From: Squalus acanthias
Taxonomy: Eukaryota
Assembly (NCBI GenBank): GCA_030390025.1
Contig: CM059431.1
Span: 120,964,001-121,028,000 of the forward strand
Direction: 5' to 3'
DNA: 64,000 bases
The notes beneath the pieces are model-generated. The model was not told the DNA's origin and made no database searches. It saw nothing but the letters and a program-made list of their open reading frames with translations. Shown here in pieces: positions 5,178 to 59,414 of the stretch. Both the position numbers and the translations under genes were made by a program. The stretch's first letter is position 1, and the number at the start of each line of letters is the position of its first letter.

Positions 5178-6470
5178 TTGAGCGCTTCCTCAACTGAGGC
5201 ATATACCAGAAGCATGGAAGCCATTTATTTCCTTCCCTTCTGGGCATCAGATGAGGACGAACACCAGCCGCGGCACCAGCAGAACCATGAACAACAGCAG
5301 CACCAACAGCAGCAGCAACAACAGGAGCGCCAAGCTGCTGCTCACCCGCCTGAAGCTGCACAGGCCAGAAGGGGCCAGCGCATGGCAGGCCGTCGGCGCA
5401 GGAGATACCGCCCAAACAGGGTCTACAGACACAGGGTCAGCTACCTCAACATGTCTGAGCAGCAGTACCAAAGCCGGCTCCGACTTTCGCGAGAGGTTGT
5501 GGGTGACATCTGCGCAATGCTGCAACAAGACCTGGAGCCCAGAGGACCAGGTGGACACCCCTTACCAGTGGCCGGCAAAGTCACCACCGCACTCAACTTT
5601 TTTGCCTCAGGCTCATTCCAGGGATCAGCAGCAGACATCAGCGGCATCTCCCAGGCGGCCGCGCACACCTGCATCACGCAGGTAACCGATGCCCTCTTTG
5701 CCATCACGCACAATCACATCCATTTCACCAAGGATCAAGCAAGTGTCACGGCGCGTGCAGTTGGATTAGCTAATCTGGCAGGCTTTCCAAGGGTACAGGG
5801 CGTCGTTGACTGCACACATGTGGCCCTTAAGGTACCCCATCGCAATCCAGGTATTTTTGTCAACCGCAAGGGCTTCCACTCCCTCAACGTTCAGCTAGTG
5901 TGTGACCACAAGAAGGAAGTTTTGCATGTTTGTGCCAAGTACCCTGGCAGTTGCCATGACTCCTTTATACTGCGCCAGTCTAGTGTGCCTCCGCTATTCA
6001 GTCCACCAGACCAACTTAACGGATGGCTACTTGGAGACAAGGGCTGTCCCCTGAAGACATGGCTAATGATGCCGTTGAGGAGCCCATCCAACGCAGCTGA
6101 GGAGAGCTACAACTCCAGCCACATTTCCACCAGAGCCATAATCGATCAAACCATCGGTATGCTGAAGATGCGCTTCAGATGCCTGGATAGATCAGGTGGA
6201 GCCCTGCAATACTCAGCTGCCAGGGTCTCCAGAATCGTCGTGGTTTGCTGTGCACTTCACAAAATGGCACAGCGTCGTGGCTTGCAGATGTCGGAGCACA
6301 AAGTGGCTCCTCACATATCCTCCTCAGATAAGGAGGAGGAGGAGGTGGAGGAGGAGGAGGAGAGAGAGAACGAACATCTTGCAGAGGCCCATCAACCAGC
6401 GGCAGCATTACGCGAGACCATATCTGCCCGGAATGCAAGGAACACACTCATGTTGGCCAGATTTGCTTAG
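5178..6470 (+). CDS. Harbinger (HARBI1-like, DDE_Tnp_4) transposase; first ATG at 5214
   Basis: Motifs [40 protein letters not shown] and [17 protein letters not shown]-terminal poly-Q and C-terminal acidic tract. Confidence 0.9.
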
Positions 6471-11105: not shown

Positions 11106-12367
11106 AAAGTGACTTTTCAAGATACCCCAGGAGCATCTATGATGGTTTCATCTTGAAAAAATCCTCACTGCCATTTCTCTTTAATGGAGCAGGACAAATG
11201 GACAGATGAATGCTGGGGAATCAAGGATACTCCTTTGCTGCTCTGGCTAATAAGAACGGTCTGGACAGAAAATGCAATGAGGCTCATGCTCTCCATCCAA
11301 ATTCTGGTGAGCAAACTATTGAATGCTGAAGCAGCATTTCCAATGGCTGGACAGATCAAATGGGGACATACTCCGAGGCCAGAAGAAGCCAAGGTAATTA
11401 CTTGAACTGATAATTTTCTGCAGATTTCTTTTGGGCCAGGAGGGCCAAGAGTGCATCCCCACCCCCACAAGGAGTTCTTGGGCCTCCCCAACCCTGGTCT
11501 TGCCTCTCCCTGCAACACTAACTTCATGCCGGGTTTCCTTCCCTTGGGTCCCCGGCATCCCCGGACTCCCCTCCTAATTGCTGCTCCTGTCCGTCGGCCC
11601 TGACGTCACTCCCGCTGGTTTAGGGCAGGAGACAATGCTGCAGTATTTAAATGAGGCCTGGGAGCTAAAATTGTCCTGCCTCAAGTTGAAATCTCCGCGG
11701 GGGTTTCCCTGCTGGCCTGCAACCCGCCCACCCTGAGTTAAAATCAACCCTTTAGAGTTGCAATTCAGTTCACGATGCTCTGCGGGCTCCCAAAACCCTC
11801 TTGCATGTCTGCACAGATGTCAGAGCAGCCCTGCTGTATGTTTTTCAACATTCCATGCAGGGAGTTCTAAAGATTCTAAAAGGACGGCATTAAAAGCTTC
11901 TGCTGATTAATGAGTGCAGCTCAGTATGCAGACCTTGTAAGGTCCAATATCCATTGTTCCTGCAGCAGCTGCCCACCTAGCCCTATCTTTCCCTGCCTCC
12001 TGTTGATGCTCATCCACTTGCACTTGCTCCACCTCAGTAATGCTCGATGCTTCATCCTGAGATCCCTCCTGACTCCCACTATCTAATTCCCCCAAAGTAG
12101 TTGTCGCTGTTAAGTAGCTGACCTCAAAAATCTGTTTGATTCAGCCTTCCACTCAACACTTGGGTACACTTGGGAGCACCGGGAGTGTGGGCCTGATTCT
12201 AAATTGATTCTAAAATGTACTATCACAGTTTCACTCACAAGGCTGCTTCATGCTGCTTCACCAACAATTCCATGGGACTTCCACTGTATTGTATCATGTT
12301 TAGGGAAAGATAATGCAGTCTCAGAACAGCTCCGGGGGTGCTCCATGTGTCTGTACCTAAAGGAGCT

Positions 12368-18950: not shown

Positions 18951-20823
18951 CTACTTTTTGCCCTTCGAGGGTGATCTCCTTCCCTTGCGCACTTCCCCCC
19001 TTCCCACCCTACTGCTCCTCCGTAATGGGACCTCAGTGGCTGCAGCAAGGCTGGTGGAAGGCTGCTGATTGTCAGAACCTGAGACTGCAGATGCCCTTGA
19101 AGGACAGCCTCGACCAGCTCTGGGCCTGGAGGGCCCGGCTGCAGACTGCACCAACTCTGCATGGGCGGCAGCAGTCTGTCCTACAGGCGGTGGCAAGTGC
19201 AGTGGAGAAGTGACAGTGGTGGCAGCAGGAATGCTGTCATCTTGAGAGAGGACAGCAACTCCCTGCTCGAACGACACACTGGCACTCCCACGGGGCAGCA
19301 CCTCAGCATCCGGAGCAATCTGCTGGAGCACAGATTGCTGGCCTGCTGCGGTGCGGTGAGAGCCCTGGGGAAATGTATACAAACCATCGAGGTTGGCAGC
19401 AGTCAGTGCTTGCGTGACCTCAATCTGAGTCTGCATGACAGCAGTCAGAGATGGGATCACGGCAGCCAGTGACTGAATTGCAGCACTAAGCTTTAGTGTG
19501 GCATCCGCCTGTGCTACAGCGAAGTGCTCCACACTCCTTGCCAGTGATTCAATGCATTCGAGCACCCTTCCCACTGCACCCATGAGCTCAGTGTGCATGT
19601 CCACCACCTGGGTGTTCATTTCAGCGATGAGCCGCTCCTCCTCTGCGTCCAGTGCAGTAGGAGTCGCTGGCATACTCTCCCTCGGGGGAGAAGGCCCCCG
19701 TTCTTCCGTACCCCCATGGCGTTGCTGCAGCCCGCTGGGTCCTGGAGCTTCACCCTCATCAGACCCTTCCCCCCTGCTCCCCTCCAGGGACGGCGTGTTC
19801 CCAGTGTGGGCATGGGCTTCCTCGGGAGAGGGTGGCACTGATGCTCCGCCTTCATCTTGCTCCTCGGCTGCAGCTTCACTCCCACTGGCAGCTTGAAGGC
19901 CCGTCTCCTCAGCTGGTGAATCACCATCTGAAAGCAGGGAGGTACAAGAGTGGCTTTAGCGTGAGGACAGGGTGGCAGTAAGGGAGGGATAAGTGCAGCG
20001 ATTTAGTAAGTTGGATTGAAAGTGTCAAAGGCTGGTGTTGTGAGGGACAAGTGGAAGGACAGAGGACAAAAAGGTGATGACCTTACCATTGCTGTCCAGA
20101 ACGGGGTCGGCGTCTCCAGTGGCGACGGGACTGATCACCCGGCTTGCCACAATCCTGTGGACACGCGCCTCAAGATCGCTGAGGGGTTGCAGCTGAGGCC
20201 GCCCTCCACCCGTCCGTTGGTGCTGTTTCCTATTATGAGATAGCTTGGCCTGCAAGAAAAAGGACGGCGTCTGAGTAAATATACAGCCATGGACTTGCCT
20301 GATGTGCCTACCATAGGTGAATAGCCCTTACTGTATGCAGCCATGGACTTGCCTGATGTGCCTCCCATAGGTGAATGGCCCTCACTGTATGCAGCCATGG
20401 TCTTGCCTGATGTGCCTCCCATATGTGAATGGCCCTTACTGTATGCAAAGTGTGGAATGTGCGTGTGTGTTTCATGAGAGGGCCATAGGTGTTGGATGAG
20501 TGTTGTGCATTGGGGTTTTAAGACCCTCTGGCCATAGAGTGAGGTTGAGATGGAGGGATGGAGAGGTATTGAAAAAAAGGCACTCACCCTGACGATCCGA
20601 GTGAGGTCGTTGAACTTTTTTCGACATTGTATATGGGTCCTGGGCACCATGCTCCTGGAGGAGACGCTCTGAGCCACCTCCCTCCACACTCTTCTGTACA
20701 CGCGCGGCAAAGGCCTCCTGCCACTCTCAGGGAAGAGTATAGATCTTCTGCGTCCACCACGCCAACCAGAGCCTCCAAGGCCCGCTCACTGAAGCGCTGA
20801 GCTTGTTCTCTCACCCTCTCCAT
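18951..20823 (-). pseudogene. Harbinger Myb/SANT-like gene, 3 exons, one frameshift near 20753
   Basis: MERVREQAQRFS...W.EVA...RTHIQCRKKFNDL; GTGAGT donor at about 20587; exon 2 AKLSHNRKQHQRTGGGRP; exon 3 acidic/coiled-coil ending RRSSR...KGKK. Confidence 0.8.
20284..20445. repeat. 54-bp tandem repeat x3 in intron 1 of the Myb-like gene
   Basis: Units CAGCCATGGACTTGCCTGATGTGCCT...ACTGTATG start at 20284, 20338 and 20392. Confidence 0.9.
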
Positions 20824-39270: not shown

Positions 39271-40865
39271 TGTAAGGGATTCTCTCCTGACCCTGCGTGT
39301 CTCGTAGCCTGTGAGATTCACGCGGCTCTGTGCAGCCTGTATGTCAGTGCGGGTCTAGGCCTGGTCTCCAGCCAGTCTGGGAACACTAGACACCCCTGTG
39401 AGTGGTTCGAATCACTCTCCCTTACGGTTCTAGACACTGGACTTAGATGCGAGAGCAGTAATGGAGATAAAACTCATGTAGACTTGGTTTGAACGGTACG
39501 AAATGGAAAATCTTTATTGCATGATACTTAAAATTATGAAATACATGTCATATGCACAGATTAATGACAGTACAATCTTACAAACAGTTATAATCACTCT
39601 TAGGGAAACGAGGAACGAACGGCACAACGTAAATAGGGCACACATTACAAATATCCTTAATCTTTAACCCTCCCCTATCAATAGCTATCCTAAACTAGCT
39701 GCGTAGGATCCCGAGACTCATGCTCACCACTCGTAATAACTCGGAGAAATCCCGAATAGCTGATCGGATGTTTTTCACCGCAGCACCCACGTGTTGGTCA
39801 GGAGATCTCCTGGTCCCACTTGTTTACTGCTTTTGCTGCTCGGTCAGTCGGCTGGACCGTCCGCTGTAGTGAAGACCTCTGTTGGTTGGATACAAGGTAT
39901 GGTGGAGCACCGTTGTCAATATCGCTGATACGATGTGTTTGCACAGTCCAGTTATCATCGATGCAATATGTCTTGTTAAAGAAGAAAACTTCCTGTCGAG
40001 AAGACTTGGCTGATCGACCTACAGGCGCGGTCGGGATCTACTGACCGTGGCGATGGATAAGGTCTTCTTCTCTTCTCCTCTCATCTCATCTCATCTCATC
40101 TCATCCCGGGCCTTCGGTTCCGCTGCCAGCTACCAACATAGGTCTTTGCAACAGTCTTTTACACAGGAGCAGCCACGATGATAACAGCAACAAGCGGCAA
40201 GAGTCAAGAACACGAGGCAAGAGCAAGAGCAAGAGGCCAGAGAGCGAATGGACGGTTTGGGGCCTGCAATTATAGTGCACAGTTCTTCCGTTTCCCGCCC
40301 AACTACAATGTCCATTCTTTTGTTTACGGTTTGGCGCCCAAAATGTCCTGTATGGGTGATCTCCGTCCTTAATGGGTTTCGGGGCTACTCATGAATGTTT
40401 GAGTACCTGCTAATATTTCTCCCATTGTTAAATCGGTCGGTGTTCCCCCTGGAGGGGTTTGGGGCTTCCAAGTGTCCTGTATAACTACCTGCTAACGGCT
40501 CTCTCATCGTAGAGCCGTTGGGAGTTTACATATTAATGTCCTTTGGATGGGCCCTTGATGGCTTTCCTTTGTACCTGGGAGACCGATCCCAGTATCGATG
40601 TTTATACTGTAAACCCATAATGTCCTGTGTATTGTCTTCACTGTGCTGAATCGTTATCGATCCTGCAAAAATGTTTATTGGAACGCCATCTTGTCTGCCT
40701 GCTGAAAAGTCTAGAATGTTCTGTCACGAGGTGCGGCGGCCATTTTACAGGCTGCTTGTGTCCAATTTAAACCTGACAGCATTCCGCTGAAATAAAAGCT
40801 GTTTTGAACGAAACTTTGTGTTTTCTCCTCATTAAAATGAAATCGCGATAATTGCGAATTCTACA
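39271..40865 (-). repeat. 3' LTR
   Basis: TGTAAGGG...TTCTACA on the plus strand. It matches 46925-48519 with no difference noticed by eye, and the ORF track reports identical ORFs at a constant offset. Confidence 0.95.
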
Positions 40866-40877
40866 GTCCCTCCTGTT
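40866..40877 (-). other. Polypurine tract (AACAGGAGGGAC)
   Basis: Purine-rich run immediately 5' of the 3' LTR on the minus strand. Confidence 0.75.
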
Positions 40878-41289
40878 GATGCGAATAACTCCGCTTATCG
40901 TATCAAAAATCTCAGTGGTGAGCAATCTTATCTCGATTTCACTCCGAATCCAGTAAATTAATCCCATAAATTTTAACTTCACTAGGGTCTCTGTGTCGTC
41001 CTCATTTCCCAAGAAAAATCACACTTTATATCACCATAGGCATCATTTGCCCTTAAACTTACACCACTTGTTTTCCTTCCCGGCGTAACCAGGCCGATAC
41101 CTCACGCATCACCTGTATATTTGTCTTTTATTCAAGGGAAGGAAAAACAAAACCCAAAAACCAAACAATCAACACCATCACCAAAATAAACAAATCCCAA
41201 CTCTTAAACATGTCGAGTTTCCAACGTATTTACAATGAGTACAAACTTCCGCGGCGCACGTGGCGAGCGGGAGTGACGCCATTTTCCCA

Positions 41290-43641
41290 TTACACTGCGC
41301 TCTCATCGTGCACGCGCACGTAACGTTCTCGCCACTCTCCCGTGTTCTCATGCTTGGTGAGGCGCTTGTCTCTTTTACAATGTATGAACAAAAGGTATAC
41401 TACAATAAACACTTGACAGACGACTAAAATGTGGGAGGCTATTCTGACCCATGAGGGCACTTCAATATTCGTGAACAGATTCCACCACGGTGGAACCACT
41501 ATGTCCAAAATGTCTGTACCTATCTCGACGGTTTTCTGTTCTAATGTATAGAAATGCTTTTGTGACACCGCGACGGCTTTCAGAAGTTTGGTTAAATGCT
41601 CAGGGAGAGGGGGAATGAGGTACCCAAAATGCGCGACAAATCGCTGCAAGTCGGTGAAATTCTCTTTTACTGTGAGATGAACAGTGGATGGTTCAGGGAT
41701 TGGGATAATTCGCTGTTGTGCTACTTGAACTTCAGCCCTGGGTTTAAAACAGAAACTGCTGTCACTCACCGGACACCGGCTACGGTTTCCATGCTGGTAG
41801 TGTTGCGCTGCAGTGGTAACACAATATGTTCCACCCCCGATGTATGCTACCTGCGGAGGCACATGATCTTGTGCCATTGCCTCCATGGTGCAATTCATGG
41901 ACTTGGCGCCAGCCGTTCTGAACCCGCACTGTGGTGTTAAAAAGGCATTCAAGTGCTGGGGGCACAGTATTATGTGTGCTCCCCTGCCACGACAACCAGA
42001 GAGATCTGTACCTGTCATCGTTTGCTCCCAGCGGATGACGTAAGGTGGAACTGCTGCATAACGAATGTGGGCTCCCCCCTGAATGACACCAATGTTCTCT
42101 ACCCGATACACCGGGGCGGGCTTTGCTGTGTTGCCCAAAACCGGCATGCGTAATACTATTCCCATAATAGTATGGTTTGAACGTCCGCAGTCCACGGGGA
42201 CTGGGTAAGCTTCTGAAGCTAGCCTGAGCTGGCACGGACTTAATGCGTTCTGAAAAGGGTGGAGCGCCCGCAGGTGTTTGTTACTTATCCAGGACGGGAC
42301 CAAACCTTGTTTTAAATCCTCCAAATTACTGCGGCCCTCGCCCAGTAACCACGCCCCGTAAAGCACGCACACCTCGTTCTGCGCAGCTTGATCGGATGCA
42401 TTCCGATCTTCCCTGATCAGGGCATTTACCGTACGCGCATGTTTCTCCAGCTCTGCTATAATTTCCTTTAAGTGTAGTGTCATGGCTTGGTCCTCGTGCA
42501 GACCTGACCCTACCACTTTATTCTCGTCTGTAAGAATATCCTTTAACTGTGTTTTTAAACCATTAATCTGGGTCTGCAGCTCCACACTGTCTAGAGCGTT
42601 GACCACAGATGTCCCTGTATTAAAGGCAGTGAACGCATCGTTCACCAAACCCCTTCTTTGCCTCCCTACTTGGTCCAAAACTTCCTGCGGTGCGGTGTAT
42701 AAACTTGTCTTATCAATTTCTGCAAAATCAAACTCGTAAAATTGCCTGAACATCTTGGTCAACAGGACCTGGTACAACTGTTCCGTCTTTTTGGGGCACC
42801 ACTCTGGTAACCGTACCTCAGTGAGATTTAAAATCACCGAGGCCACCGCGTAATGTACCCCCTGAAATAGTATCTGGTCTGTGGGGACCAGTACCAAACC
42901 GTTCCCGGGTCCCTTACTAGTTTTAGGGCACCCTTCTTCCTCAGTTAGAACTACCGGGATCGTGGGCGGGGCTTTGCGTGGGCGCGTAATGAGCTCAGTG
43001 GCATTTACTGGGATCGGAGAGTATGGGGCTCCGCACCCCCTGGTGCTCGCATCCCACCTCATCCCCTGTCCGTTATCCTGCCACTGATTAATAAAGAATA
43101 TGGAGATGCCTTTGGGGCAAACGTACTTTGACCCCCACATACAAACATAAATTCCCTCATCCGGTTCCCACCATTTGTCCCAACAGACTTTCACTTGTCC
43201 GTCTGTCCCCGTAATTGTCCGATGGGTATTATTACCCAGTCGCTCCCACTCAACCGAAGAGTTCCTCATAGTTTTGCTCAGCTTTCGCAGCCACCACCAT
43301 CGGCTCAATGGGACATTCCCACTGCAGGTCAAACAAATCCGTTTGCCGACGGTGACGCTGATCCTGGGTGCGATGATCCGTACTTTGGGGCACATTAAAG
43401 AAGTCTCTTTATAGGCGAACCCCGATGTGCTGGAATACTCCGTTGAGTTCGTTCCCAGCCATCCTGGCCACCTTCCCTTGTGGAAATAGGTGCTGGTCCC
43501 TTCTGCCTTCCGTCTCCCGGTCCCATCCACCGCGATGGGGGCCGTGTCCCCGGAACATCCAAACACCACGACATCCTTGGTGAGGCCCCGATAGGCCAAT
43601 CCACATCCGATTGCCACGAGCAAAACTAGAAGTCGTTCCAT
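41290..43641 (-). CDS. env: Envelope / class I fusion glycoprotein (783 aa), F-protein-like, with an N-terminal Ig-like domain
   Basis: Signal peptide MERLLVLLVAIGCGLA; Ig-like LTC...W...DEGIYVC; furin site RQRR (aa 327-330) followed by a fusion-peptide-like segment and heptads; Cys-rich region; W-rich juxtamembrane segment; TM ILVVCQVFIVVYLLFI; short tail; several NxS/T sequons. Confidence 0.88.
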   Translation of the reverse strand: MERLLVLLVAIGCGLAYRGLTKDVVVFGCSGDTAPIAVDGTGRRKAEGTSTYFHKGRWPGWLGTNSTEYSSTSGFAYKETSLMCPKVRIIAPRISVTVGKRICLTCSGNVPLSRWWWLRKLSKTMRNSSVEWERLGNNTHRTITGTDGQVKVCWDKWWEPDEGIYVCMWGSKYVCPKGISIFFINQWQDNGQGMRWDASTRGCGAPYSPIPVNATELITRPRKAPPTIPVVLTEEEGCPKTSKGPGNGLVLVPTDQILFQGVHYAVASVILNLTEVRLPEWCPKKTEQLYQVLLTKMFRQFYEFDFAEIDKTSLYTAPQEVLDQVGRQRRGLVNDAFTAFNTGTSVVNALDSVELQTQINGLKTQLKDILTDENKVVGSGLHEDQAMTLHLKEIIAELEKHARTVNALIREDRNASDQAAQNEVCVLYGAWLLGEGRSNLEDLKQGLVPSWISNKHLRALHPFQNALSPCQLRLASEAYPVPVDCGRSNHTIMGIVLRMPVLGNTAKPAPVYRVENIGVIQGGAHIRYAAVPPYVIRWEQTMTGTDLSGCRGRGAHIILCPQHLNAFLTPQCGFRTAGAKSMNCTMEAMAQDHVPPQVAYIGGGTYCVTTAAQHYQHGNRSRCPVSDSSFCFKPRAEVQVAQQRIIPIPEPSTVHLTVKENFTDLQRFVAHFGYLIPPLPEHLTKLLKAVAVSQKHFYTLEQKTVEIGTDILDIVVPPWWNLFTNIEVPSWVRIASHILVVCQVFIVVYLLFIHCKRDKRLTKHENTGEWRERYVRVHDESAV

Positions 43642-43925
43642 CCTTCCTTGGTTCCTGTGATCAGATAGAATGAGGTAGCCAGCCTCGCAAAAAGTCTCTG
43701 GCTTTTGTGAAGGGTGAGCGGGTCCCCTGACCTCGCCTCACGTAAACTTCAACGTTTGCTAAATAGACTTCCTCTAAACCTAGCCTTAAAACTCCCATCA
43801 TTTTGTCGTTATCTGTTAAAAACACTACAAACTTAACCTTATTAAAACTACTTAAAACCTTAAACTAAAACTTAAAACCTTAAACTAATAACTTTACAAT
43901 GCCGCCCGTTCTCAGGGCGGCCCCT

Positions 43926-44828
43926 TTAAATCCTGAGAAGGCTGCTGCGAGCTCTTCCCGACGGTGGGAGGGCACTGACCCTTCCCTCTGATCTGCCGCA
44001 GCCTGTTGCTGCGCTGACCCTTTCCTCTGATCTGCCGCAGCCTGTTACTGCTTCGATGTGGCCTGTCTCTACCCGGGTTATCTTAACCTGAAACTTACGC
44101 CCTGGGGCAGTCTGTGGACCTGACCACATCCTCCTGGGCTGGGGTACTCTGCTTGACCTACGGGGAGTTGCTATGGGCGGGGGCTCCGTGACGGACGGAC
44201 CGGGTTCCGAGACCTCCAACGGGATGACCTGGGGTTCCATCACAGTCGCCAGCTCCGCCTCCGCTGACTCCGCCTCCCTAACCTCGGGGCTGGCAGTTCG
44301 TGGCCCCGCCCTGCTCGGCCCAGCAGGCGGCCCTTCACTCGTGAACTCTGCCTCCCCTGAGGACTGGACGTTCAAAGCGGGCGGCCACACCTCTGGGAAC
44401 CACATTGGTACTCCCTGTGCTCCTATGGCGGCTGGCCCTGCCTCCTCTAGCTCCTCCCTCCTGTTGTCGGGACCTGCAGCTTGTGTGTCCACCCCGTGTG
44501 GATCTCTACCTATCGGCCCCAATCCTCCCAGACCGTTCCTCCGGAACCACCCGTCATCATCACTATGCTCATCTGCACTATCCTCATCTGACCAGGGTAC
44601 CCTGGGGTCCTCGTCATCTAACCCCCAACTCCAGAAAAACGCTGCATGATCGTCCGGGATGTCCCTTCCCCTGATGCAAGCTGCTACGCCTGCCTGTGTG
44701 CCTTGTGGTCCTACCTGGGGCTGTGTCTTCCCCACTCGCAGGTCTGGCCCCTCCCTTAAGACAGGCCACCGCCCCTGCTTGTTTCTGTGAAATCTCACCT
44801 GCTGGAGGCTGCAGATTTCTATCCTGTT
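43926..44828 (-). CDS. Acidic/proline-rich ORF of unknown function between gag and env; no ATG at its 5' end
   Basis: Stop-free frame 44828-43926 containing WSWGLDDEDPRVPWSDEDSADEHSDDDGW, RRSSR and a 13-aa duplicated unit TGCGRSE.RVSA. Confidence 0.45.
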   Translation of the reverse strand, partial: NRIEICSLQQVRFHRNKQGRWPVLREGPDLRVGKTQPQVGPQGTQAGVAACIRGRDIPDDHAAFFWSWGLDDEDPRVPWSDEDSADEHSDDDGWFRRNGLGGLGPIGRDPHGVDTQAAGPDNRREELEEAGPAAIGAQGVPMWFPEVWPPALNVQSSGEAEFTSEGPPAGPSRAGPRTASPEVREAESAEAELATVMEPQVIPLEVSEPGPSVTEPPPIATPRRSSRVPQPRRMWSGPQTAPGRKFQVKITRVETGHIEAVTGCGRSEERVSAATGCGRSEGRVSALPPSGRARSSLLRI

Positions 44829-45108
44829 TTAAATCCTCATACTCCCTGCTCCTGGCTACCCTGTAGGCTGTTTTTATCTCTCTAAGCTGCCCTTCTAGCC
44901 TGAGCACGTCTAACTTTCCCATTGCTCGGGCATTCTCCTCCCGCAGGGCCTGCTCTCTAAGCTGCCCTTCCAGCCCATCTATTTTCTCTATTAAGCGGGC
45001 GTTCTCCTCCCGCAAGGCCTGCTCTTTTAACCTGGCCTCCTCACCGCAGACCCCCTCCTGTGCGTGTCTTTTAAAAGGACACAGGTAGGCAGGCTGCGTG
45101 GGCTCTAG
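44614..45108 (-). CDS. In-frame post-gag extension (164 aa, coiled-coil), putative readthrough product
   Basis: Codon walking shows the frame of ORF 44614-45015 stays open back to the gag TGA (45109-45111). The context is CAA TGA CTA G. EQALREENAR...LEGQLR occurs twice. Confidence 0.6.
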   Translation of the reverse strand, partial: LEPTQPAYLCPFKRHAQEGVCGEEARLKEQALREENARLIEKIDGLEGQLREQALREENARAMGKLDVLRLEGQLREIKTAYRVARSREYEDLKQDRNLQPPAGEISQKQAGAVACLKGGARPASGEDTAPGRTTRHTGRRSSLHQGKGHPGRSCSVFLELGVR

Positions 45109-46920
45109 TCATTGGGTACTATTAGACGGTCCTGCGGCACCTACGGGGCCGGTTGCGACCGCCACCTGTCCACGCGCATTCAAAACCATCTTGCGCATGA
45201 CTCCTAACACTGCTTCGAGGTCTTCGGGAGAGGTGGGTGCCTTTGCTTCCTTAGCCGGGACAGGCGCCTGGGTTCGGACCGCGGGATTTTTATCCTTGGA
45301 ATCCTTCCAAGGGTTCCTGCAGTGCTTGCGCCAGTGCCCTGTCTTCCCACACCCGTAACAGGCATTACTTGCCTGTGGGGCGCGATTACCCTCCTGATGC
45401 CACTCTCTTTGAGTCGGGGCTGCGGGTCGTACCTCATGTACTCTTCCCTTAAAGGGACGTGTCGTCATACCCCTTATGTTACGGTAACCCAACGTAAGTC
45501 GATTCAAGACCGACTCTTCCGTAAGGTTGAGGTCATTGGGATCGAACCAGGCTTTTGCCTGCTCTCTAACGGCTGGTAAACTGTTGGCTATTATGCACCT
45601 AAGCCAATGAATTAAAGCGGCGCCTTCCACATCTTCGCGTTCGGGCGCACCTAGACAGCTGCGCTCATATACTGGCCACAGCCTGTCGGCAAAAACCTTC
45701 GGGGGTTCTCCCTCCATCTGCACTGTCTGTCCCACTCTAGCAAACGGACCTCCGTCGTTCGCTCCCACTACTTCTAGGACCTCATTTTTCAATTCCTCAT
45801 AACTTTTATTACCCCTCTTGCTATCGCCTGAGAGACACTGAAGGACCGAGCTATCTAACGAGAACAGCAGCATTTTTGCTGTCTCCCCATCATCGCAGCC
45901 GTTGATGGCTGCGGCTTGCTCAACTTCCCTAAAATGTACGGAAGGGTCGTCTATCTCGGTCAGCTTCCTTACGTGGTTTATCATGGCCCTCAGCTGATGT
46001 GAACTGTGAGGCAACACCAGCTGTCCGAGGAGATCCCCCGGTTCTTCCCCACCGTTTCTGCTTGGGCCCCTTTTAATACCCGTTACTGGATACAACGATC
46101 CCTTTTCTACCTCCTTTTCAACGGGCTCTTTTGCTTCTTCCGTTGCTTCCTCCCTAACCCAGGTTTCTGAATAGCTGGGTGGCGCGGAGGGCGCAGTGGC
46201 TACTACTTCTTCTGCTTTACTTGGTGGGGAATTTCTAAATCTCTCATTTACTAGCGGCTGGCGTGCCGACGGATTAATAAGGCACACCATGCCGTTCGCA
46301 TTATTCACGGCCTTTTTGAGGCTCTCTATCTCTTTTTCGCAGGCGCTATGGTCGGCTCCCTGAAACTTATCCTCAAGGGCCAACTTATACGCCGACCTAA
46401 CCCCCATTAAGCTCTCTTCTTGAGTTCTTATCTGGGCAGCTTGACGGTTACATCTTTCCTTCATCCTACTCTCGTTTAATTTTGCTTCAGTGATCTGGCA
46501 CTCGAGATACTCTACCCTTGTTTTAAGGTAACTGGAGACTTCCTGGCTTTCCTGGCGTAACTCATGTAAACTCTTAATGAGCGCCTCCCCTCCAGAAACC
46601 TTCTCCTCCATTTCCTCCTCTAACTGCTTGATTCGAGCGGTTAGCGCTGTATTGGTCTGGTTTGAAATCTGAACCTGCCTTTTGTAGCACATAAGCCAGA
46701 CTGCTTTCTCAACTGCCTTTTTATGCTCCTTACTATCAGTCCACCTTTCAGCTGCCTCTAGTGGGCTCTTATCCGCTAACAATTCGCTTATCCACTTTTT
46801 CGTTAGATTAACCTTTCCAAATACGTAATCCGCTATCTTTTCCTGCATCACATTTCGTACAGTCATTCCAAAATCTAACACACTACCCTCTCGCTGCCAG
46901 TGTCCTGCCGCGGTCGCCAT
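45109..46920 (-). CDS. gag: Gag polyprotein (603 aa)
   Basis: N-terminal coiled coil, PSAPPSY late-domain motif, capsid-like helical region and CX2CX4HX4C knuckle CYGCGKTGHWRKHC; located directly after the 5' LTR/PBS. Confidence 0.88.
   Translation of the reverse strand: MATAAGHWQREGSVLDFGMTVRNVMQEKIADYVFGKVNLTKKWISELLADKSPLEAAERWTDSKEHKKAVEKAVWLMCYKRQVQISNQTNTALTARIKQLEEEMEEKVSGGEALIKSLHELRQESQEVSSYLKTRVEYLECQITEAKLNESRMKERCNRQAAQIRTQEESLMGVRSAYKLALEDKFQGADHSACEKEIESLKKAVNNANGMVCLINPSARQPLVNERFRNSPPSKAEEVVATAPSAPPSYSETWVREEATEEAKEPVEKEVEKGSLYPVTGIKRGPSRNGGEEPGDLLGQLVLPHSSHQLRAMINHVRKLTEIDDPSVHFREVEQAAAINGCDDGETAKMLLFSLDSSVLQCLSGDSKRGNKSYEELKNEVLEVVGANDGGPFARVGQTVQMEGEPPKVFADRLWPVYERSCLGAPEREDVEGAALIHWLRCIIANSLPAVREQAKAWFDPNDLNLTEESVLNRLTLGYRNIRGMTTRPFKGRVHEVRPAAPTQREWHQEGNRAPQASNACYGCGKTGHWRKHCRNPWKDSKDKNPAVRTQAPVPAKEAKAPTSPEDLEAVLGVMRKMVLNARGQVAVATGPVGAAGPSNSTQ
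46902..46919 (-). other. Primer binding site, tRNA-Arg(TCG)-type
   Basis: The minus strand reads TGGCGACCGCGGCAGGAC, complementary to ...GTCCTGCCGCGGTCGCCA, which I recall as the vertebrate tRNA-Arg-TCG 3' end. It lies 5 nt from the LTR. Confidence 0.85.
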
Positions 46921-46924
46921 TTTC

Positions 46925-48519
46925 TGTAAGGGATTCTCTCCTGACCCTGCGTGTCTCGTAGCCTGTGAGATTCACGCGGCTCTGTGCAGCCTGTATGTCA
47001 GTGCGGGTCTAGGCCTGGTCTCCAGCCAGTCTGGGAACACTAGACACCCCTGTGAGTGGTTCGAATCACTCTCCCTTACGGTTCTAGACACTGGACTTAG
47101 ATGCGAGAGCAGTAATGGAGATAAAACTCATGTAGACTTGGTTTGAACGGTACGAAATGGAAAATCTTTATTGCATGATACTTAAAATTATGAAATACAT
47201 GTCATATGCACAGATTAATGACAGTACAATCTTACAAACAGTTATAATCACTCTTAGGGAAACGAGGAACGAACGGCACAACGTAAATAGGGCACACATT
47301 ACAAATATCCTTAATCTTTAACCCTCCCCTATCAATAGCTATCCTAAACTAGCTGCGTAGGATCCCGAGACTCATGCTCACCACTCGTAATAACTCGGAG
47401 AAATCCCGAATAGCTGATCGGATGTTTTTCACCGCAGCACCCACGTGTTGGTCAGGAGATCTCCTGGTCCCACTTGTTTACTGCTTTTGCTGCTCGGTCA
47501 GTCGGCTGGACCGTCCGCTGTAGTGAAGACCTCTGTTGGTTGGATACAAGGTATGGTGGAGCACCGTTGTCAATATCGCTGATACGATGTGTTTGCACAG
47601 TCCAGTTATCATCGATGCAATATGTCTTGTTAAAGAAGAAAACTTCCTGTCGAGAAGACTTGGCTGATCGACCTACAGGCGCGGTCGGGATCTACTGACC
47701 GTGGCGATGGATAAGGTCTTCTTCTCTTCTCCTCTCATCTCATCTCATCTCATCTCATCCCGGGCCTTCGGTTCCGCTGCCAGCTACCAACATAGGTCTT
47801 TGCAACAGTCTTTTACACAGGAGCAGCCACGATGATAACAGCAACAAGCGGCAAGAGTCAAGAACACGAGGCAAGAGCAAGAGCAAGAGGCCAGAGAGCG
47901 AATGGACGGTTTGGGGCCTGCAATTATAGTGCACAGTTCTTCCGTTTCCCGCCCAACTACAATGTCCATTCTTTTGTTTACGGTTTGGCGCCCAAAATGT
48001 CCTGTATGGGTGATCTCCGTCCTTAATGGGTTTCGGGGCTACTCATGAATGTTTGAGTACCTGCTAATATTTCTCCCATTGTTAAATCGGTCGGTGTTCC
48101 CCCTGGAGGGGTTTGGGGCTTCCAAGTGTCCTGTATAACTACCTGCTAACGGCTCTCTCATCGTAGAGCCGTTGGGAGTTTACATATTAATGTCCTTTGG
48201 ATGGGCCCTTGATGGCTTTCCTTTGTACCTGGGAGACCGATCCCAGTATCGATGTTTATACTGTAAACCCATAATGTCCTGTGTATTGTCTTCACTGTGC
48301 TGAATCGTTATCGATCCTGCAAAAATGTTTATTGGAACGCCATCTTGTCTGCCTGCTGAAAAGTCTAGAATGTTCTGTCACGAGGTGCGGCGGCCATTTT
48401 ACAGGCTGCTTGTGTCCAATTTAAACCTGACAGCATTCCGCTGAAATAAAAGCTGTTTTGAACGAAACTTTGTGTTTTCTCCTCATTAAAATGAAATCGC
48501 GATAATTGCGAATTCTACA
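46925..48519 (-). repeat. 5' LTR (TATA-like 47923-47928, splice donor 47381, AATAAA 47167-47172)
   Basis: Direct repeat of 39271-40865, followed by the PBS on the minus strand. Confidence 0.95.
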
Positions 48520-50350
48520 GGAGCCAATCAGAGAAGGGAATCTCCCTTCATACATTTGACAGGAAAACCTGTCAAATATATGAATGGAAATCACCCCCAA
48601 AACATAATAAAACTTTAAATACATTTTTTTAAAAATCACATTTTTAAAATGACTTTAAATTACATAAATTAAGTATTTTAAACAAAAGTTTTATTTTTGG
48701 AAAAAAATAATTTAAGTTTTTAACGGGGCTAAAAATAAACTTACCTTTCTTTAAAGTATTTTTATATGATAAATCAGTGGAAACATTGTTTTTTTACTTT
48801 TTTCAACTCTTATCCTGGTAAAAGCAAGCCTTACACCTGCTTTTACCAGGCGCAAGAATTGTAAATGTTTTCTGCGGGCGGAGGGTCTCCAAAAAACAGA
48901 ACTCTCCCCCCGCAGAGGCCCTGCTCCAGGGCAGCCGAAGGATCTGTCAAGAGCTTTCTTGACAGATTGGAAATGCCGGTTTCCAGCGCATGCGCAGTGC
49001 ATGCCTAAAACCGGCATTTCCGTTGGCCCTACGGGTGAGTACACAGCGCGTACACACCCGTAGGGAACGGAATTTCTGCCTCAGTATTATGTAGGGATGG
49101 CTCTTGAATCGCTTTAGACATGGGCAGGGATTTAACTCAGAGGCGGGGAAGGAGCAGGGCAGCTGAATTACGGTCAGGAAACCCGGGAGAATGAGTTTCC
49201 CTCAGGCTCTGCCGAATTTAACGGCAGGGCCTTGGAACACTTTCTTTTCTCTGTTGGCACCAGGCCACAGCCGGGGAGCAGAGAGGAGGGAGGGAGGGTT
49301 CGGAGGCCGGAGGGGAGTCGGGGGCCGGGGATCAGAGATCAGAGGCCGAGGGTGGAGGCTGGAGATCGGAGGCCGAGGGTGGAGGCTGGTGATCGGAGGC
49401 CGGATGGGGGTCGGGGGCCGGGGATCGGAGATCGGAGGCCTCGGGGGTGATGTCAGAGGCTGGGGCTGGGGGGGGGGGGAGGAGATCGGAGGCCTCATGG
49501 GGGAGATTGGAAGGGTCGCGGGGTGGTGGTGTCTGAGCGCGGTGGGGTGGGCGAGTCAGGTACGCTAGATGCAGCAGGTAAGTGGAAAGGGACTTACCTC
49601 CCGTATCCAACAGTCCTCGTCTTCCTTTCGTTGCCGGGCTCCCCAAGGCCAGGGAAACCCGGCCACCCAGACTTAAATCTAAAATGGTGTTTCGAAAAGA
49701 GGCACGCAGCCTCATTATAATATTTAAATGGTCAACCCGCCTCCTGGGAACGGGTTGGCCCCCCGGCCCCCCATCTCGCCTTCGTTCAAGCCAAAAGTTG
49801 GAAGCGTGTTGGGATCGGGATTCAGATTTCTAACACTGTAACTTCCCACCTGACCCCCACGCACCCATACATAGTACAAACCTTAGGCATGAAACCATTT
49901 CACTATCGCTCTCTTACTCGGGAGAAACGAAGAGCCCGGCTGCAAAGTTTGGAATTATCTGTGCAGAATGTGCAAGCAGAGCAGGTGTTTATTTTTCCTC
50001 ACTGAAACTGGGCTGTCATGGACCATTGGGGAGTGACTCGATGTGTGTGGTTTAGTTATTTTAACCCATTTCACACTAAATTGCTCATAATTTCAACATA
50101 AATTGGCAATATCACTCATGGCTGGGTTGGGAAATCGAAACATTTACAGATTAGAGGGAGCTGCTGACGCTGACCATGAGTGCTAAAAAATGGAAAGGAG
50201 TTCCCTTCTCCCATCCTGATATCCCTGACCTTGAAAAGCACAAAACAAAACAGATACAAAGGCCGCAATTATAACGATTTCCACGCTCCCCACCCCCACT
50301 GGTGGCAGAGGGTTGGACACGGGGGGATTGGAGTTGGGGTTAAAACATCA

Positions 50351-52257: not shown

Positions 52258-55200
52258 ATTGTTTCGGACTTCTGCCTCCAGGCACTGTTATGCCTATTCT
52301 ATTTCATACCACCAAACAAACATCAAACACAAATTTTCATCCATTTGGTGATTACTTTAGCACTAATGTCCTTGAATAACATATGGGCACCATGGAGGAA
52401 ATAGTCGTATATGGCACAAAGGCTATTTGTTTACCACAATCAAAAATCAAGAATCAAAAATCTTATACATATTTATTTTTATTTATTTGCTATTTATGCA
52501 TGGCGAACACACCAATCCTTTGTGGAATATTGTGTATCACCTTAAAGACATCAAGATAATTTGCAGAGTCAGGCCCTTCACTGCAAAAGAAATGTATTGC
52601 ACCAGATGCAGAAAGGGACAGTAATACCTTAATTTATATCATGTGTGGCAAAATACATTTGGACAAGAAACATGAGAAGTCATTTTTGCTGGAATATAGA
52701 TCTTGGTCAATTTTTAAAATATATTTTATTTTCTGCACATCCTTGGCCTTTTCTGATTCAGGGTGAGGCACTATTCTGCTCTCGGGCTTCTGCCAATGCC
52801 ACCCATGAGTTGGTTTCTGGCAGGTGAGTCAGCCATGAAGGTGACTCAGCCTCTTTCTATCTTCCCTCGTCTCCCGTGGGAAGTAAATAATCTCCACTTC
52901 CACATCCCTTGCCAGCTCCTCAACAGGCAAGATTTTAAAACGTGACATGTGACAGACATAAGCCAATTTTCTATCACTGTTAGATACAGTCTGCTGGACT
53001 GCCAGCATATTTATCATCATGATACCTGGTGGAAACAGTTTATAATGATTACAAGGATGAATTGCGATGCTTCATTGATAGAAATAATTCTTGTAAGTAA
53101 ATGTGCGCTAAGAGAGAAGTTTAACATGGAAGATTTGTTTCAGTTTACTAATTAGACCAGTTTCATCAGTGTGACAGTGCTGTTATCAGGGTTCATAATA
53201 TACTTTGCACACACTGATTCCTTACTCTGCTACTTTAGCAGATGCATTAACCCATTTAACATAAGGGTGTTAACACCAGTAAAAGTATTGGAAAGAGGAA
53301 TTTCAGATAAAAGTTTGTAACATTTCTGTTATTTTCAAGGTCATAATGATAAAAGCATGTACTTGCATCACTTTCTATTTTGGCTTTTCATACATTTTCT
53401 TAATAATTAGTAATTCTAGCATACTGTAATCGTACTCGTTCCATCAGCATCCTGTCATTATTTCCAAATGAAATAGTCAACAGCATAATGACTGAAAAGC
53501 AAGATAGGTTATTGGATTCCAGCTTTTGATTATTATTAACTTCTTACGGAGCTACTTAAAAATGATTGCTTTGTAACACATGAGCCTTTCTAAATATATT
53601 AAAAGAAAAATCTAAATGAAGTTGGATTTTCTTCTCACTGGGTATCGAAATGTTATGGCACAGATAATAATGGAATAAGATTTACAATTCCACCATGTCA
53701 TATTATGTCTCAGTTTTGAAAAGATCAATTATATTACATAACTGGCCTTAACATAACAAGTGTATATGTGATTTCTGTAATAAGTACTGCAATAAAAATA
53801 TACATAGAAATGAATAGCTGATTAAAATGAATCACAAGGGTTCCCGATTCAGAGTGAAGTTAAAGCATTACAACACTGTCCTTTCTACAACACTCTTCTG
53901 TCTCACTATCTCAAATCCTATTTTTCCCTTTCTCTTTTAATTATATTTTATTACTATTTAATTCAGGTAAGTTTTCCATTTCTAGCCCAACGAGTAACTT
54001 TAACCTTACTCACCGGACGGGGAACCCGGTGGAACGTTTTCACAAGCACATTGGAAATATTTGGTACGTTAATATTTGGAAGCAATAGATCATACCATAT
54101 GCATATCTTTATATCTCTATTATATAGTTGTGTGATATAACATAGGAGTTTGTTCCAAAGCTCTAGCATGCCAGAGTTTCAAAATCACAGTAAATATTGC
54201 TATGTAAACCTGTTGCTCGTTTAAACCTAGCAATATACGATGAATTTAACCTTATATGTAACAGTACATGGCTGGCAGTTTTTCTTCAAAGAAAACAAGT
54301 GCACTATTAGGAAAATAAAGAATAGCAGAATGTCCCATTGATTCACCATCTGTAAGAATGGAATTTAAGAATTCCATTACAGCATTGCACTTTTCACTTC
54401 TACTATAAGCTTAAGTATTGATGTGTAAACCTTTTGGCTGATTGTAGTAGTTCATCCTTGCCCAGTTTAGCCTTTCCTTCCCTTAGCTATTATAAGTAGT
54501 GCTTTACATTGTATGCCACAGCCACCAAAATGAAATGCTGGTGACATTTTGTGCCTTGTGATAAGGATGGTTTGCGAAGCCAAGAACAAAATGAATATGT
54601 TGACTCTCCAAGCAGATAACTTAGTTCAGGCATATAATTAATGTTCACAGAAATAATAAACCTGTGTTTATTTTAGCAAGTAATCCAGAATGATCAAGCA
54701 ACACCCTACATGCAAAACCAAATCGATCGCTGCTGAGCTAGCTGATCCCAGGCTACATTTGGCCTGAGTGTCCCTGTGCGAGGGAGGAGAACATCAGTCA
54801 GGCTTCCAGTTCCTGGCCTTTGCTAGAAAATGCTCAGATATGGATGTCTATTGAGAATGGAATTGGCTCAACTGCAATACATGCCATGATAAAGTAGCTT
54901 GCCAATACTCTGCCCAGGCGTGCACTGAACATTGGCCACTTTGGTAAGGACCAACAACCAATCAGCAAAGAGTCAATGCCATCAGGAGGGAAGGACGGTT
55001 GGGGAGAATATTAAAGGAAAAAGAAGGAAGAAAAATTGCTTCCCAGAAACAACAATGAGGGCCAACTACAACCTACATATTCAACAGATGCTGCCCAAGC
55101 TAAGTGCAGTATTCTGCACAAAAGCAAAATACACAGATGCTGGATATCTGAAATAAAAACAGAAAATGTTGGAAATACTCAGCAGGTCAGGCAGCATCTG

Positions 55201-55270
55201 TGGAGAGAGAAACAGAGTTGATGTTTCAAGAAAAAATGGGGGCAGAGGTTATGATCTGAAATTGTTGAAC

Positions 55271-56964
55271 TGTAAGGGGTTGTGTGTGTCGTGCTTGTAT
55301 CGCAGGCGGTGCTGGTGTGGGGTTAGGCCTTCGTTGCCTAATACTATTGCTTGCTCTGGTCTCCGGCCAGCCTTGTTGCAATAAGCACCTGTGAGTGGTT
55401 CGACCCACTCGCCCTTACGGTTCTGACACTGGACTTAGGTGCGAGAGCAGTAATGCAGAGAAAAACTCAAATAGACCCGGTTGAATAGTACGAAATGGAA
55501 ATCTTTATTGCATAGCGTCCAAGATCATGAAGTACATGTCATAGGCACAAATTAACGATAGTACAAGTATACATACATTCATAAAGCTTGGTCTATGGTA
55601 ATGAAGAACGCACGGCACATCGTAAAAAGGGGGACACATTATACTTTATCCTTAATAAAACCACCCTCCCTTATCAATACCTACACTACATCTAGATTTG
55701 TAGGATCGGGAAACATGCTCACCACTCGTGATACTTCGGAGAATTTTAAAGTGAGGCGCTCGGCTCGTTTCGCTGCAGCGCCTGACTGTCACGTGTTTGG
55801 AGGGGTCTCTGTACCCCACTTTTTTATCTTCGCTGATGCTACAAGCAGGCTGGGCTCCCCGTTGTCATGAAGAACTCGACAGTGCTCGGACCCGGCTGTA
55901 GAACTCAAAGAAAAGTCTTCCTGGACCGACACCAGTTGCCGGTAGAATTCAAAGAAGAGTCTTCCTGTATCGACACCAGTTGTCGATAAAATTCGAGGAA
56001 GAGTCTATTACCAGTTCGTGCAGTAACTGATAGAATTCGTATAAATTCGGCGCGGTCGGGGTTTACTGACCGCGGCGGCACGTGGATTCTTCTTCTTCTC
56101 TTCTCATCTCGTCTCGTCTCGTCTCTTCGGGTCTTCGGGTCCAAAACACCGTTTACCGACACTCGGGATGATGCACCCGGCTACTCGCCCTTCGTCGAGG
56201 CGGCTCGTTCCGATTGAGCTCCACCAACATTCGAATAACCGTCCAGTGCGGCTAAAAGTCCAGAGTCAACAGTCCAGAGAAACAAGAGCACGAATCAAGC
56301 GAATAAGGGTCGAATCAAGAGCATCAGCCGAGATAAGAGAATAAGCCCCCGATGGACATTTGTTGTCTATAGTTATAGTGCTGTGTTCCCTTATCTCCTG
56401 CTCAAATCTTAATGTTTGTCCTTTGTGAAATATTGGCGCTCAAAACTCCCAGCATGGGGTGATTCTTGTCTTTAACGGGTTTCGGTAGCACCTGAGACTG
56501 GCCGACTACCCGTTAATGATTTCCCCATTGTCGAACCGGCTAGGAGCCTCCCTGGCTGGGTTTTGGGGGCCCCCGAATACTTGTTCAATCACCCGAGAAT
56601 GGCTCTCTCATTGTAGAGCCGTGGGGGTATTTGCGTATTGATGTGTCTGGATGGGCCTTCGATTGCCCAGTACAATGGTCCTTACTTGTGCATGGAAAAC
56701 GATTCCAGCACTCATATCTTTTGCTATTGTCACAAATGCAAACAGGTTGCATCCTGTCTTTATCAGTGTTTATCGAAAATGTTTATTCGAACGCCATCTT
56801 GTCTGCCCACTGTACTTCTAGAAACTTCTGCCACGATGCGCGGTGGCCATTTTACAGGCTTCTGTGTCTTGTTTAATCATGACAGCATTTTGTTTAAATA
56901 AACTGATCAAACGAATCTGCTTCTATCTCGTTATTTCGAATCGCGATAATTGCGAAACTTTACA
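55271..56964 (-). mobile_element. Solo LTR (1694 bp) of a family related to 39271-48519
   Basis: TGTAAGGG...TTTACA with TSD GAAC (55267-70, 56965-68). Shares many colinear blocks with the 1595-bp LTR. Confidence 0.92.
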
Positions 56965-57263: not shown

Positions 57264-57300
57264 AGTTCTGATGAAAGGTCATCGACCTGAAACATTAACT
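57264..57300 (+). ncRNA. Minimal hammerhead ribozyme motif (Penelope type), probably mutated
   Basis: AGTT CTGATGA AAGGTC-ATC-GACCT GAAA CATT AACT. Confidence 0.6.
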
Positions 57301-59414
57301 CTGTTTCTCTTTCCACAGATGCTGCCTGACCTGCTGAGTATTTCCAGCATTTTTTGTTTTTATTGCAGTATTCTGTTGGTTGTTTGCATGGTGTATGTGC
57401 CCCATCAATTACTCCAGCTGTTTTCAGTGGGCCACATTGTTGTTCAGATCTCATGGAGTTGCTTTGAAGCCGCATGGCTGAGAGGTATTCTGCTGAATAT
57501 AATTTGAACATGGGAATCATTGCACAGAAGATTTTAAGTGTTCCTTGATGGACAACCGTACATACTTAGGGAGCACATTGCTATTCCTATCCAAACCTCC
57601 CCAAGTTGTTTCACTGTCTAAGTGAATTACGTTGTTATGTGCCTGTGTCAACAGAATTAAAAATAACTGTCATAGTGTACAAAATCTAGGTTGTAATTAT
57701 CTTGGCTAACACTGAGGAATACATGTTCTTTCCCAAATTCATTCTGAAAGGTTCAAATGTCAGGAGACACAGACTGAAAATTAGGAAAACAATTTAAATG
57801 TAACCTCATTACTCAAAGGAGTAACTGAGTTTAATAAGTTAGCAGGGAAGTCCATTGGAGTGGATGCTCAAAAGGCAATTAGAAATGTATTAATGGAGAG
57901 ACGGGATGAAAGAATATGGTGAGAAGGGAGGAAAGTGGGGTTGATATATCCAAAAGGGACAGGATTGTTGGGCTTAATGTTCTTTTCCCATTCTTATAAA
58001 TTCTTATGTTCCTAACCCAAGAAAAATATTGTAAATGTAAAAAGAAAAGTTTTTTTGCAACTGAGAAACATTGCTAAGCGATACTTGCTCATTCTTTGCC
58101 TCCTTTGTATAGTGAAATCCTTGGATAGAATTTACTGCATAATGTGCTATTAACCTAGAGCCTGAGCAAACACCATCTTTGCTTGTCGAACCATCGATAA
58201 TCAAACTCTGCAAATCTTGGTTTGAAGGCAGTCCATTGGATGACATCATTAGAAACTGGCGCATTGAAAGATGTTGTCGCACAGCTGTGTACACATAGTG
58301 CACAAGCACACAGAATGAGAATATGTGGATTGGCAGTGGAGTTGCCCTTTTGAAAGGCGACAGTATAAACAGGGTCAAGCCATTGAGTACATCTTTTTCA
58401 GAATGGGTTTAAGCATAGAATTAGGTCAGGAGGAGCCAGTATTAATGACCTCAGTGTTCTCAAAAGTGAAAATAATGCAGTATTATAAACAGATGTACTA
58501 TTGATACAGACTTCAAACTATTAGACGTAATGCATATCTGACTGTCATAGAGTTATAGAGTTATACAGCACAGAAAGTATTTAATATAGATATTCTATGT
58601 ACTTATCTTTGAAGATTTACATATATCATGCAATTTTGTTTAACAGTCTCATATATTTCCTTTAACACTTTAACACTTTCCTGTCTTACATCACACTACT
58701 TCCATCAAACTTGTCTGTGCAGCCCCCATTGGCGGCCAAGCCTTCAGCTGTTTAGACTCAAATCTCTGGGTCCCGGATATTAACAGGGGTGGGTTACGTG
58801 CAGGGGATGGGGAGAGGTTTTAACTCCACAGCATGCGTCTTTTCTCCTTGACAGGTTGCATACCCGGAAGTCCTAATTGACAGGCTTGGGTTCCAGTCGG
58901 GTGGGTAGGACTTCGGAACAGGCCGCAGGCCGCAGGAGCAGGTAGATCCATTCCACGACCCGGGGGGGTTCCGATCCCCAACCCCGGGTGTCTTTTAATG
59001 GGAGGGGTCTGATTGGGGGGGAGCTTGTGGGGCCGGTTAAATCAGGTTAAATCGGAGGCTGCCAGCCTCATTAAAATAGTTAATTTTCCAACCCGCCTCC
59101 TGGGAGTGGGATGGCTGCCCGCCCTTGACCCACCTCTGTTAAACCCGGAAGTGGACAGGCTAGAGGCGGGTTGTGGTCGGGCTTGAGATTATTAAAATTT
59201 TAACATCTGACCCAAAACCAAACCCAGCCATTTTGGGGATTAAAATTCACCCCTGGGCTTCCCTCTCGAAACTTCTCCACCTCTCCACCTCTCTCTCTCT
59301 CCCCTTTAAGACGCTCCTTAAAATTTACCTCTTTAAGCAAGTTTTCAGTTATCTGTCCGAAAATCTCTTTCTTTGGCTCAGTGTCAATTTTTGTCAGATT
59401 ACGCTCCTGATAGG

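Follow-up and report, generated by a model that had tools for sequence, protein, structure and literature searches.

Retroviral readthrough junctions and deleted elements

When a single in-frame stop codon parts gag from pol and no start codon precedes the protease, readthrough of the stop is the expected route to Pol, as is well established in retroviral biology. Gammaretroviruses, epsilonretroviruses, SnRV, SSSV, ZFERV, RMEV and XtERV-S all have gag and pol in one frame with one stop between them. UGA is the stop in SSSV (UGAAGA), ZFERV (UGACGA) and RMEV (UGAAGU) (PMC13517186), and XtERV-S also has a TGA junction (PMC8278194). The elements described here share the single-frame, single-stop arrangement with these systems but differ from them in their alphavirus-type UGA-CUA or UGA-CUG context. 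The open-access text of a 2026 review, which lists UAG and three other UGA contexts, gives neither UGA-CUA nor UGA-CUG for any retrovirus and contains no match for lokiretrovirus; according to the same text, UGACUAG alone, without structure, supports at least about 1.3% readthrough (PMC13517186).

The mouse IAP 1-delta-1 element is likewise non-autonomous, internally deleted and very successful, and its in-frame gag–pol remnant gives a fusion reported to act in cis (PMC6466679). By analogy, it may be regarded as the closest functional counterpart of the element described here. The two differ in that the IAP 1-delta-1 fusion constitutively replaces Gag, whereas here the full Gag is kept, the remnant lies behind a putatively leaky stop and env is kept as well. 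Bhikhari elements, which are non-autonomous relatives of lokiretroviruses, encode Gag only (10.1101/2024.03.25.586437), whereas the present element keeps env and a Pol remnant.

Layout of the pol-less element

The window, a stretch of 64,000 nucleotides of the Squalus acanthias genome (contig CM059431.1, positions 120,964,001 to 121,028,000), contains on its minus strand a young, non-autonomous endogenous retrovirus from which pol has been deleted and for which helpers are present in the genome. It is flanked by a 4-bp target site duplication (48520..48523 and 39267-39270). The 5' LTR (46925..48519) is 1595 bp long, runs from TG to CA and is identical to the 3' LTR (39271..40865), in which AATAAA near 39518 is the likely poly(A) signal. 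A primer-binding-site-like 18-mer starting with TGG (46902..46919) lies 5 nt past the LTR and overlaps the gag ATG, and a purine-rich, polypurine-tract-like stretch (40866..40878) precedes the 3' LTR. The gag gene (45109..46920) encodes 603 amino acids with a coiled-coil-like N-terminus, a capsid-like part and a CCHC zinc knuckle. The closest named Gag is a skate protein (51%), zf-CCHC is detected on Gag homologues, and the capsid look-alikes Retrotrans_gag and Ty3 capsid (score 0.95) are a lead only. The env gene (41290..43641) encodes 783 amino acids with a weakly matching Ig-like N-terminus (E 0.99), an RQRR cleavage site, a fusion-protein-like ectodomain and a transmembrane segment. All rows listed by Foldseek for the Env model (pLDDT 67.7, pTM 0.43) are F proteins of paramyxo- or pneumoviruses, with a best E of 5e-11; PF00523 has no match in Env by sequence, and the sole result of an atlas search with Env is an unnamed cluster (0.84). 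No enzyme domain was found in the element.

Further features were seen in and around the element. Taken together, TATA near 48260 and AATAAA near 47172 would give an R region about 1 kb long, and the likely env splice donor at 47381 lies inside the LTR. Copies spaced by about 7.7 kb (pol-less) or 12.4 kb (pol-bearing) on contigs C1, C3, C4 and C3716 suggest tandem proviruses. A solo LTR of a related family (55271-56964, minus strand; 84-93% in matched blocks) is enclosed by an 81-nt inverted repeat (arms at 55148-55228 and 57288-57368). Other mobile elements at 12114-15025 (+), 2212-2979 (+), 5148-6470 (+) and 20135-20785 (-) contain LINE endonuclease and reverse transcriptase (RT), an RT fragment, a DDE_Tnp_4 transposase and a Myb/SANT-like ORF.

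The stop at the end of gag

The minus strand from 45114 to 45100 reads CAA TGA CTA GAG CCC. The TGA at 45111-45109 ends the 603-codon gag, which starts with the ATG at 46920, and TGA CTAG (45105..45111, minus strand) is a type II readthrough context, which precedes the protease in pol-bearing relatives. As described in the initial annotation, the frame then runs on for another 164 codons and closes with the TGA at 44616-44614, so that the predicted fusion of this copy has 603+1+164 = 768 residues. The first in-frame Met past the stop is codon 63 (copy L002), consistent with an ORF track that displays the 3' part alone.

CTAG directly after a stop has a chance of about 0.004 given the composition of the element; the real evidence for the stop context is its conservation rather than these odds. 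The exact 30-nt context has 591 genomic matches, and when the hexamer is left free in the pattern, TGACTA is present in 97 of the 100 matches listed out of a total of 527. A search with the junction region reduced 3140 candidates to 40 scored matches and 30 loci, window included, and all 30 have TGA CTAG. The frame is open for 356-399 codons past the stop in 29 of the 29 other copies, most commonly for 386, and thus both the context and the open frame that had been pointed out in the window are conserved in its family. Among 90 loci in all, 87 have an assignable junction (L043, L058 and L072 were dropped), and every one of these has a TGA stop with C at +4, followed as CTA in 64, CTG in 21 and CGA in 2. 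Of the two type II hexamers, UGACUA and UGACGG, the first is therefore found at 64 of the 87 loci, that of the window included, whereas 13 loci of a pol-less family of intermediate distance, hereafter the mid family, carry UGA-CUG rather than the canonical UGA-CUA. These 87 loci fall into about five related groups and so represent few independent events.

The 164-codon length is private to the window copy. Its frame departs from the family frame at about codon 128 past the stop, and the remainder of the product lies in an overlapping 300-codon ORF (43926-44828). At the break, the sequence of this copy is unique in the genome, compared with 197 occurrences of the form present in L002. Single-base indels are common in single copies (six per 1500 nt of gag in 30 copies), so an assembly error at the break is possible. 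The fusion of about 768 residues that was originally predicted thus applies to the frameshifted window copy alone, which would yield a truncated, frameshifted product without the short motif described below; the family form is about 990 residues long.

The same junction in pol-bearing relatives

Two distant Gag proteins used as queries gave 60 further loci, 57 of them with an assignable junction. Past the stop, 30 of the 57 run in frame into a full protease with DTG, 13 into an ORF like that of the window and 14 into a differently deleted Pol. A search with the junction pattern gave 15 loci, 14 of which run into the protease with the same first codons, and the Gag proteins of several of these relatives are 78-83% identical to that of the window. 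Gag of the pol-bearing relatives in this genome is 41-82% identical. In these relatives gag and pol share one frame parted by a single stop, and TGA-CT(A/G) lies directly in frame with protease, RT, RNase H and integrase; Pfam identifies protease, RT, an RNase H-like tether, RNase H and integrase in the frame past the stop, and there is no Met between the gag stop and the protease. The position of the stop in frame with the protease suggests that it is very likely a Gag–Pol readthrough site. The site in the window would thus very likely be the ancestral Gag–Pol junction with a probably leaky UGA-CU(A/G) stop. In agreement with this, the proposal that an ancestral Gag–Pol recoding site had been retained, and with it the expectation that autonomous relatives would have TGA-CTAG followed by protease, is borne out in the form TGA-CT(A/G) plus in-frame protease. 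A pattern for a pol-bearing copy with the exact tail start of the window family matched no genomic place, and no relatives of this Pol were found among viral contigs.

Placement among known retroviruses

The element is probably SnRV-like and not a lokiretrovirus, judging from the Pol of its relatives. In a by-eye comparison over 47 positions of the RT core, a pol-bearing relative agrees with SnRV at 36 and with Loki-Aro at 25. A quick RT tree of 66 of 115 candidates, built without labelled SnRV or other references, places it together with Pol proteins of coelacanth and amphibians and away from class I and Gypsy (SH-aLRT 88). The best matches among solved RT structures are of MLV type, followed by foamy virus, with Ty3 lower. 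SnRV-like endogenous retroviruses occur in the elephant shark and the coelacanth (PMC4422223; PMC4977317). The likeness to these, including elephant shark CmiERV lineage I, lies in the RT core; the window group differs from them in its stop context and its pol-less families, and SnRV itself has UAGGGC.

A lokiretrovirus identity, which was the first reading, was dropped on the by-eye comparison of RT and of Pol layout. A paramyxovirus-F-like Env has been described for lokiretroviruses (PMC7947760), and the window group resembles them in its F-like Env with an RxxR site, in the coiled-coil N-terminus of Gag and in that its nearest Pol matches are named NYNRIN-like; the dual RNase H is shared too, but it is common to all retroviruses and hence not diagnostic. 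The RT of Loki-Aro has TPFG, whereas the relatives of the window group have the retroviral LPQG, and the long protease–RT segment of Loki Pol is absent from these relatives, in which the order is PR-RT-tether-RNase H-IN. The occurrence of an F-like Env together with an SnRV-like RT raises the possibility that such Env proteins extend beyond lokiretroviruses.

In the supplement of a lokiretrovirus paper, 4 of at least 17 TGACTAG places, in a count that misses motifs split over lines, lie at the end of gag in frame with a protease motif as judged by eye, and two of the four match Pol entries of Loki-Ofa and Loki-Cne (PMC7947760). The main text of that paper, as far as available, has no mention of readthrough, frameshift or stop codon, nor has the main text of PMC9040795. 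The same supplement labels a Loki 'smc' gene as joined to gag, which may be the Gag coiled coil (PMC7947760).

Origin of the ORF behind the stop

The ORF behind the stop, which had been called a non-Pol ORF, is largely a remnant of Pol, from which all enzymes have been deleted. About 280 of its 386 codons in the family form derive from Pol, namely the first 12 codons and the tail that follows integrase. Comparison with pol-bearing relatives identifies Pol codons 1-12, the spacer before the protease, as retained (45073..45108, minus strand). Next comes a coiled-coil insert (44824..45072, minus strand; limits approximate) with a 69-nt internal repeat, derived from the N-terminal region of Gag. 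It matches an ENA Gag with E 1e-12, and the insert of a sister family is 51% identical to Gag of the far family described below (tblastn and translations). The last part is the low-complexity C-terminal tail of Pol (43926..44751, minus strand), which is split over two frames in the window copy. In pol-bearing relatives this tail follows the C-terminal domain of integrase and is in frame with integrase in several copies, and the ORF shares its last residues and its stop with Pol of the closest relatives. The residues RI right before this stop also recur in distant families. A captured unrelated gene was considered and dropped, the direct comparison with relatives accounting for the ORF. No homologue of the 386-residue product was found among 7996 candidates of similar length, and no Pfam family scored above cut-off in the ORF.

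The tail carries a short motif, RRSxRxPQPRxxW (44124..44162, minus strand; RRSxRxPQ(P/Q)RxxW when all five groups are considered), which is present in all five families and lies outside the readthrough frame in the window copy. It is found in 30 of 30, 12 of 13 and 10 of 14 pol-less loci and in 13 of 16 and 7 of 14 pol-bearing stretches. Three to four of its 13 residues differ between a window-family copy and the nearest relatives, and outside the motif the tails are only 25-40% alike between families.

The window family and the mid family share the insert, which is 85% identical between them compared with 65% for Gag, suggesting a single deletion that was spread by recombination. In the far pol-less family (14 loci), pieces of protease, RNase H and integrase are fused to the tail in a single open frame of up to 410 codons, with 4-5 deletion junctions that each, by eye, fall in the original protein frame. 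There are thus two independent deletions, not three. One deleted copy of the far family (L105:1770-4781, oriented) has a sense codon at the junction and a 1004-codon Gag–remnant ORF.

Selection on the frame and on the amino acids

The reading frame past the stop is kept, whereas its amino acids are near-neutral except for the one short motif. In the three pol-less groups (57 loci), all 11 shared indels past the stop are multiples of three, compared with 22 of 48 indels confined to single copies (Fisher p 0.0013) and with 5 of the 25 shared ones in the non-coding sequence downstream of the ORF. Shared stops in the ORF number 1 against 12.1 expected in the same groups (Poisson 7e-5). This stop signal is mostly that of the far family, and in the window family alone there are 0 shared stops against 1.2 expected, or 0 against 3.0 with all variants (p 0.049). 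Among variants in at least two copies, and with ambiguous codon pairs excluded (up to 660 in one set), pN/pS past the stop is 1.41, 0.77 and 0.67, compared with 0.11, 0.27 and 0.17 in gag, 0.09-0.17 in protease–RT and 0.41-0.86 in other reading frames. Relative to the nearest pol-bearing relatives, the tail has omega values of 0.89 and 1.17 (two of three comparisons, the third having no anchor), compared with 0.35 for gag and 0.11-0.13 for env. Pol-bearing copies show just as much relaxation in the tail (0.78-0.96, compared with 0.04-0.18 for integrase, with 6 of 30 stretches left out as unanchored or shifted by insertions), and so the neutrality of the tail does not separate a protein from no protein. 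For the insert, pN/pS is 0.98 within the window family, and 12 synonymous and 13 non-synonymous changes over 78 codons give an omega of 0.39 between the two pol-less groups.

The kept stop and the open remnant suggest that translation of these Pol and Gag leftovers may still matter. It is improbable that they are passive leftovers, in which the deletions kept the frame by chance, the families are young and recombination with helpers refreshes the tail. Such an origin agrees with the near-neutral change of amino acids, with the weak stop statistics in the window's own family and with pol-less tails that are nearest to different pol-bearing subfamilies (dS 0.10-0.23), which points to recombination. 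Nevertheless, in-frame junctions and insert or linker indels of 69 and 24 nt are exclusive to pol-less copies, the 4-5 far-family junctions each preserve the protein frame by eye, non-coding controls freely accept frameshifting lengths, and a dS of 0.22 from the nearest helper is time enough for stops to arise. Tail indels of the far family could, however, have come from pol-bearing copies by recombination, which counts against a selected function in the pol-less copies.

RNA structure, splicing and possible translation of the remnant

For type II readthrough at UGACUA, an extended stem-loop downstream of the stop is a conditional feature. A hairpin is predicted in the window copy (45044..45104, minus strand), starting about 8 nt into the readthrough site. 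Six strands were folded, L105 being ignored as not at a junction, and the z scores of the 147-nt fold are -3.0 for the window, -2.7 for L091 and 0.4, 1.1 and -1.6 for others. Thus, of the stimulatory stem that had been suggested, a predicted structure is present in the window copy, but it is not conserved across families. In a 7-bp helix all 189 cells are paired and every change is one-sided, alignments of 27 and 13 sequences contain no two-sided changes in stem pairs, and a conserved RNA stem was dropped for want of covariation support. Neither a pseudoknot nor a conserved stem was found downstream of the stop, and there is no Rfam match within the element.

A likely env intron (43655..47381, minus strand, GT..AG) has its donor in the 5' LTR and its acceptor just before the env ATG. 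Its splice joint was seen in one contig from one of four runs, with 23 nt on the short side and with RNA status guessed. None of the data sets that contain the element is registered as RNA; contigs from six runs whose RNA status is likewise a guess span it, which speaks neither for nor against expression. Each of the four runs also has contigs that join 39266 to 48520 without the element, with 4 shared letters, and reflect either an empty allele or a repeated target sequence.

These data bear on the idea that the leaky stop is incidental and that the ORF is made separately, through splicing or by initiation at an internal AUG, as an accessory protein comparable to those of snakehead retrovirus. 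The in-frame Met at codon 63 and the likely splice donor in the LTR would allow this, and in snakehead retrovirus splicing is complex and accessory ORFs are present (PMC12193657). In every group, however, the open frame already begins directly at the stop, before the first Met. A simple scan of this stretch revealed no acceptor-like site, and the sole canonical splice joint seen leads to env, in contigs that show presence and not absence. Separate production is very improbable. At 43820-43925 (minus strand) a hairpin-like purine-rich stretch spans the tail stop and is followed by a long U-rich tract, past which lie a possible second acceptor and ATG ATG.

It is also conceivable, though rather unlikely, that translation alone counts, in that rare ribosomes passing over the first 1.2 kb past the gag stop strip decay factors, terminate at the former stop of Pol and shield the RNA from nonsense-mediated decay, the protein being a by-product. 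Such protection predicts an open frame with near-neutral amino acids, as observed, and agrees with a filler that is wholly different between the two deletions and with the U-rich stretch past the tail stop. In mammalian cells, readthrough below 1% can be enough to dislodge UPF1 and to inhibit decay (PMC9661723). On the other hand, the inferred 3' untranslated part would be shortened only from about 5.6 to 4.4 kb, the motif persists across families, and omega of the insert between families is 0.39.

Possible role of the fusion protein

The identity of the junction, the anatomy of the ORF, the conservation of its frame and the relaxation of its amino-acid sequence are direct observations. A role that may be proposed for them, with a probability of about one half, is that the leaky stop gives a minor Gag fusion of about 990 residues whose packaged tail and motif help its own RNA in cis while enzymes are supplied in trans. 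Ribosomes would pass the UGA at a few percent to produce Gag followed by the first 12 codons of Pol, the Gag-derived coiled coil and the C-terminal tail of Pol. The fusion would enter particles through its Gag part, the flexible tail with its short basic motif would aid the RNA that encodes it, as in IAP 1-delta-1, and the enzymes would come from pol-bearing relatives.

Implications for retroviral readthrough

A broader proposal, tentative and at somewhat less than even odds, is that alphavirus-type UGA-CUA readthrough is the Gag–Pol mechanism of two deep lineages, the SnRV-like group and some lokiretroviruses, and that the post-integrase tail is a module needed in cis and kept twice by pol-less parasites. 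If this is true, retroviruses would gain a structure-light readthrough context of the alphavirus type, and there would be a hint at how lokiretroviruses make Pol. The proposal also draws attention to the post-integrase tail, an unstudied module. With hundreds of young copies, two independent deletions and natural frameshift copies, these families provide a ready test system, in which it may be asked whether selection maintains retroviral readthrough for the protein it makes or for protection of the RNA from decay.
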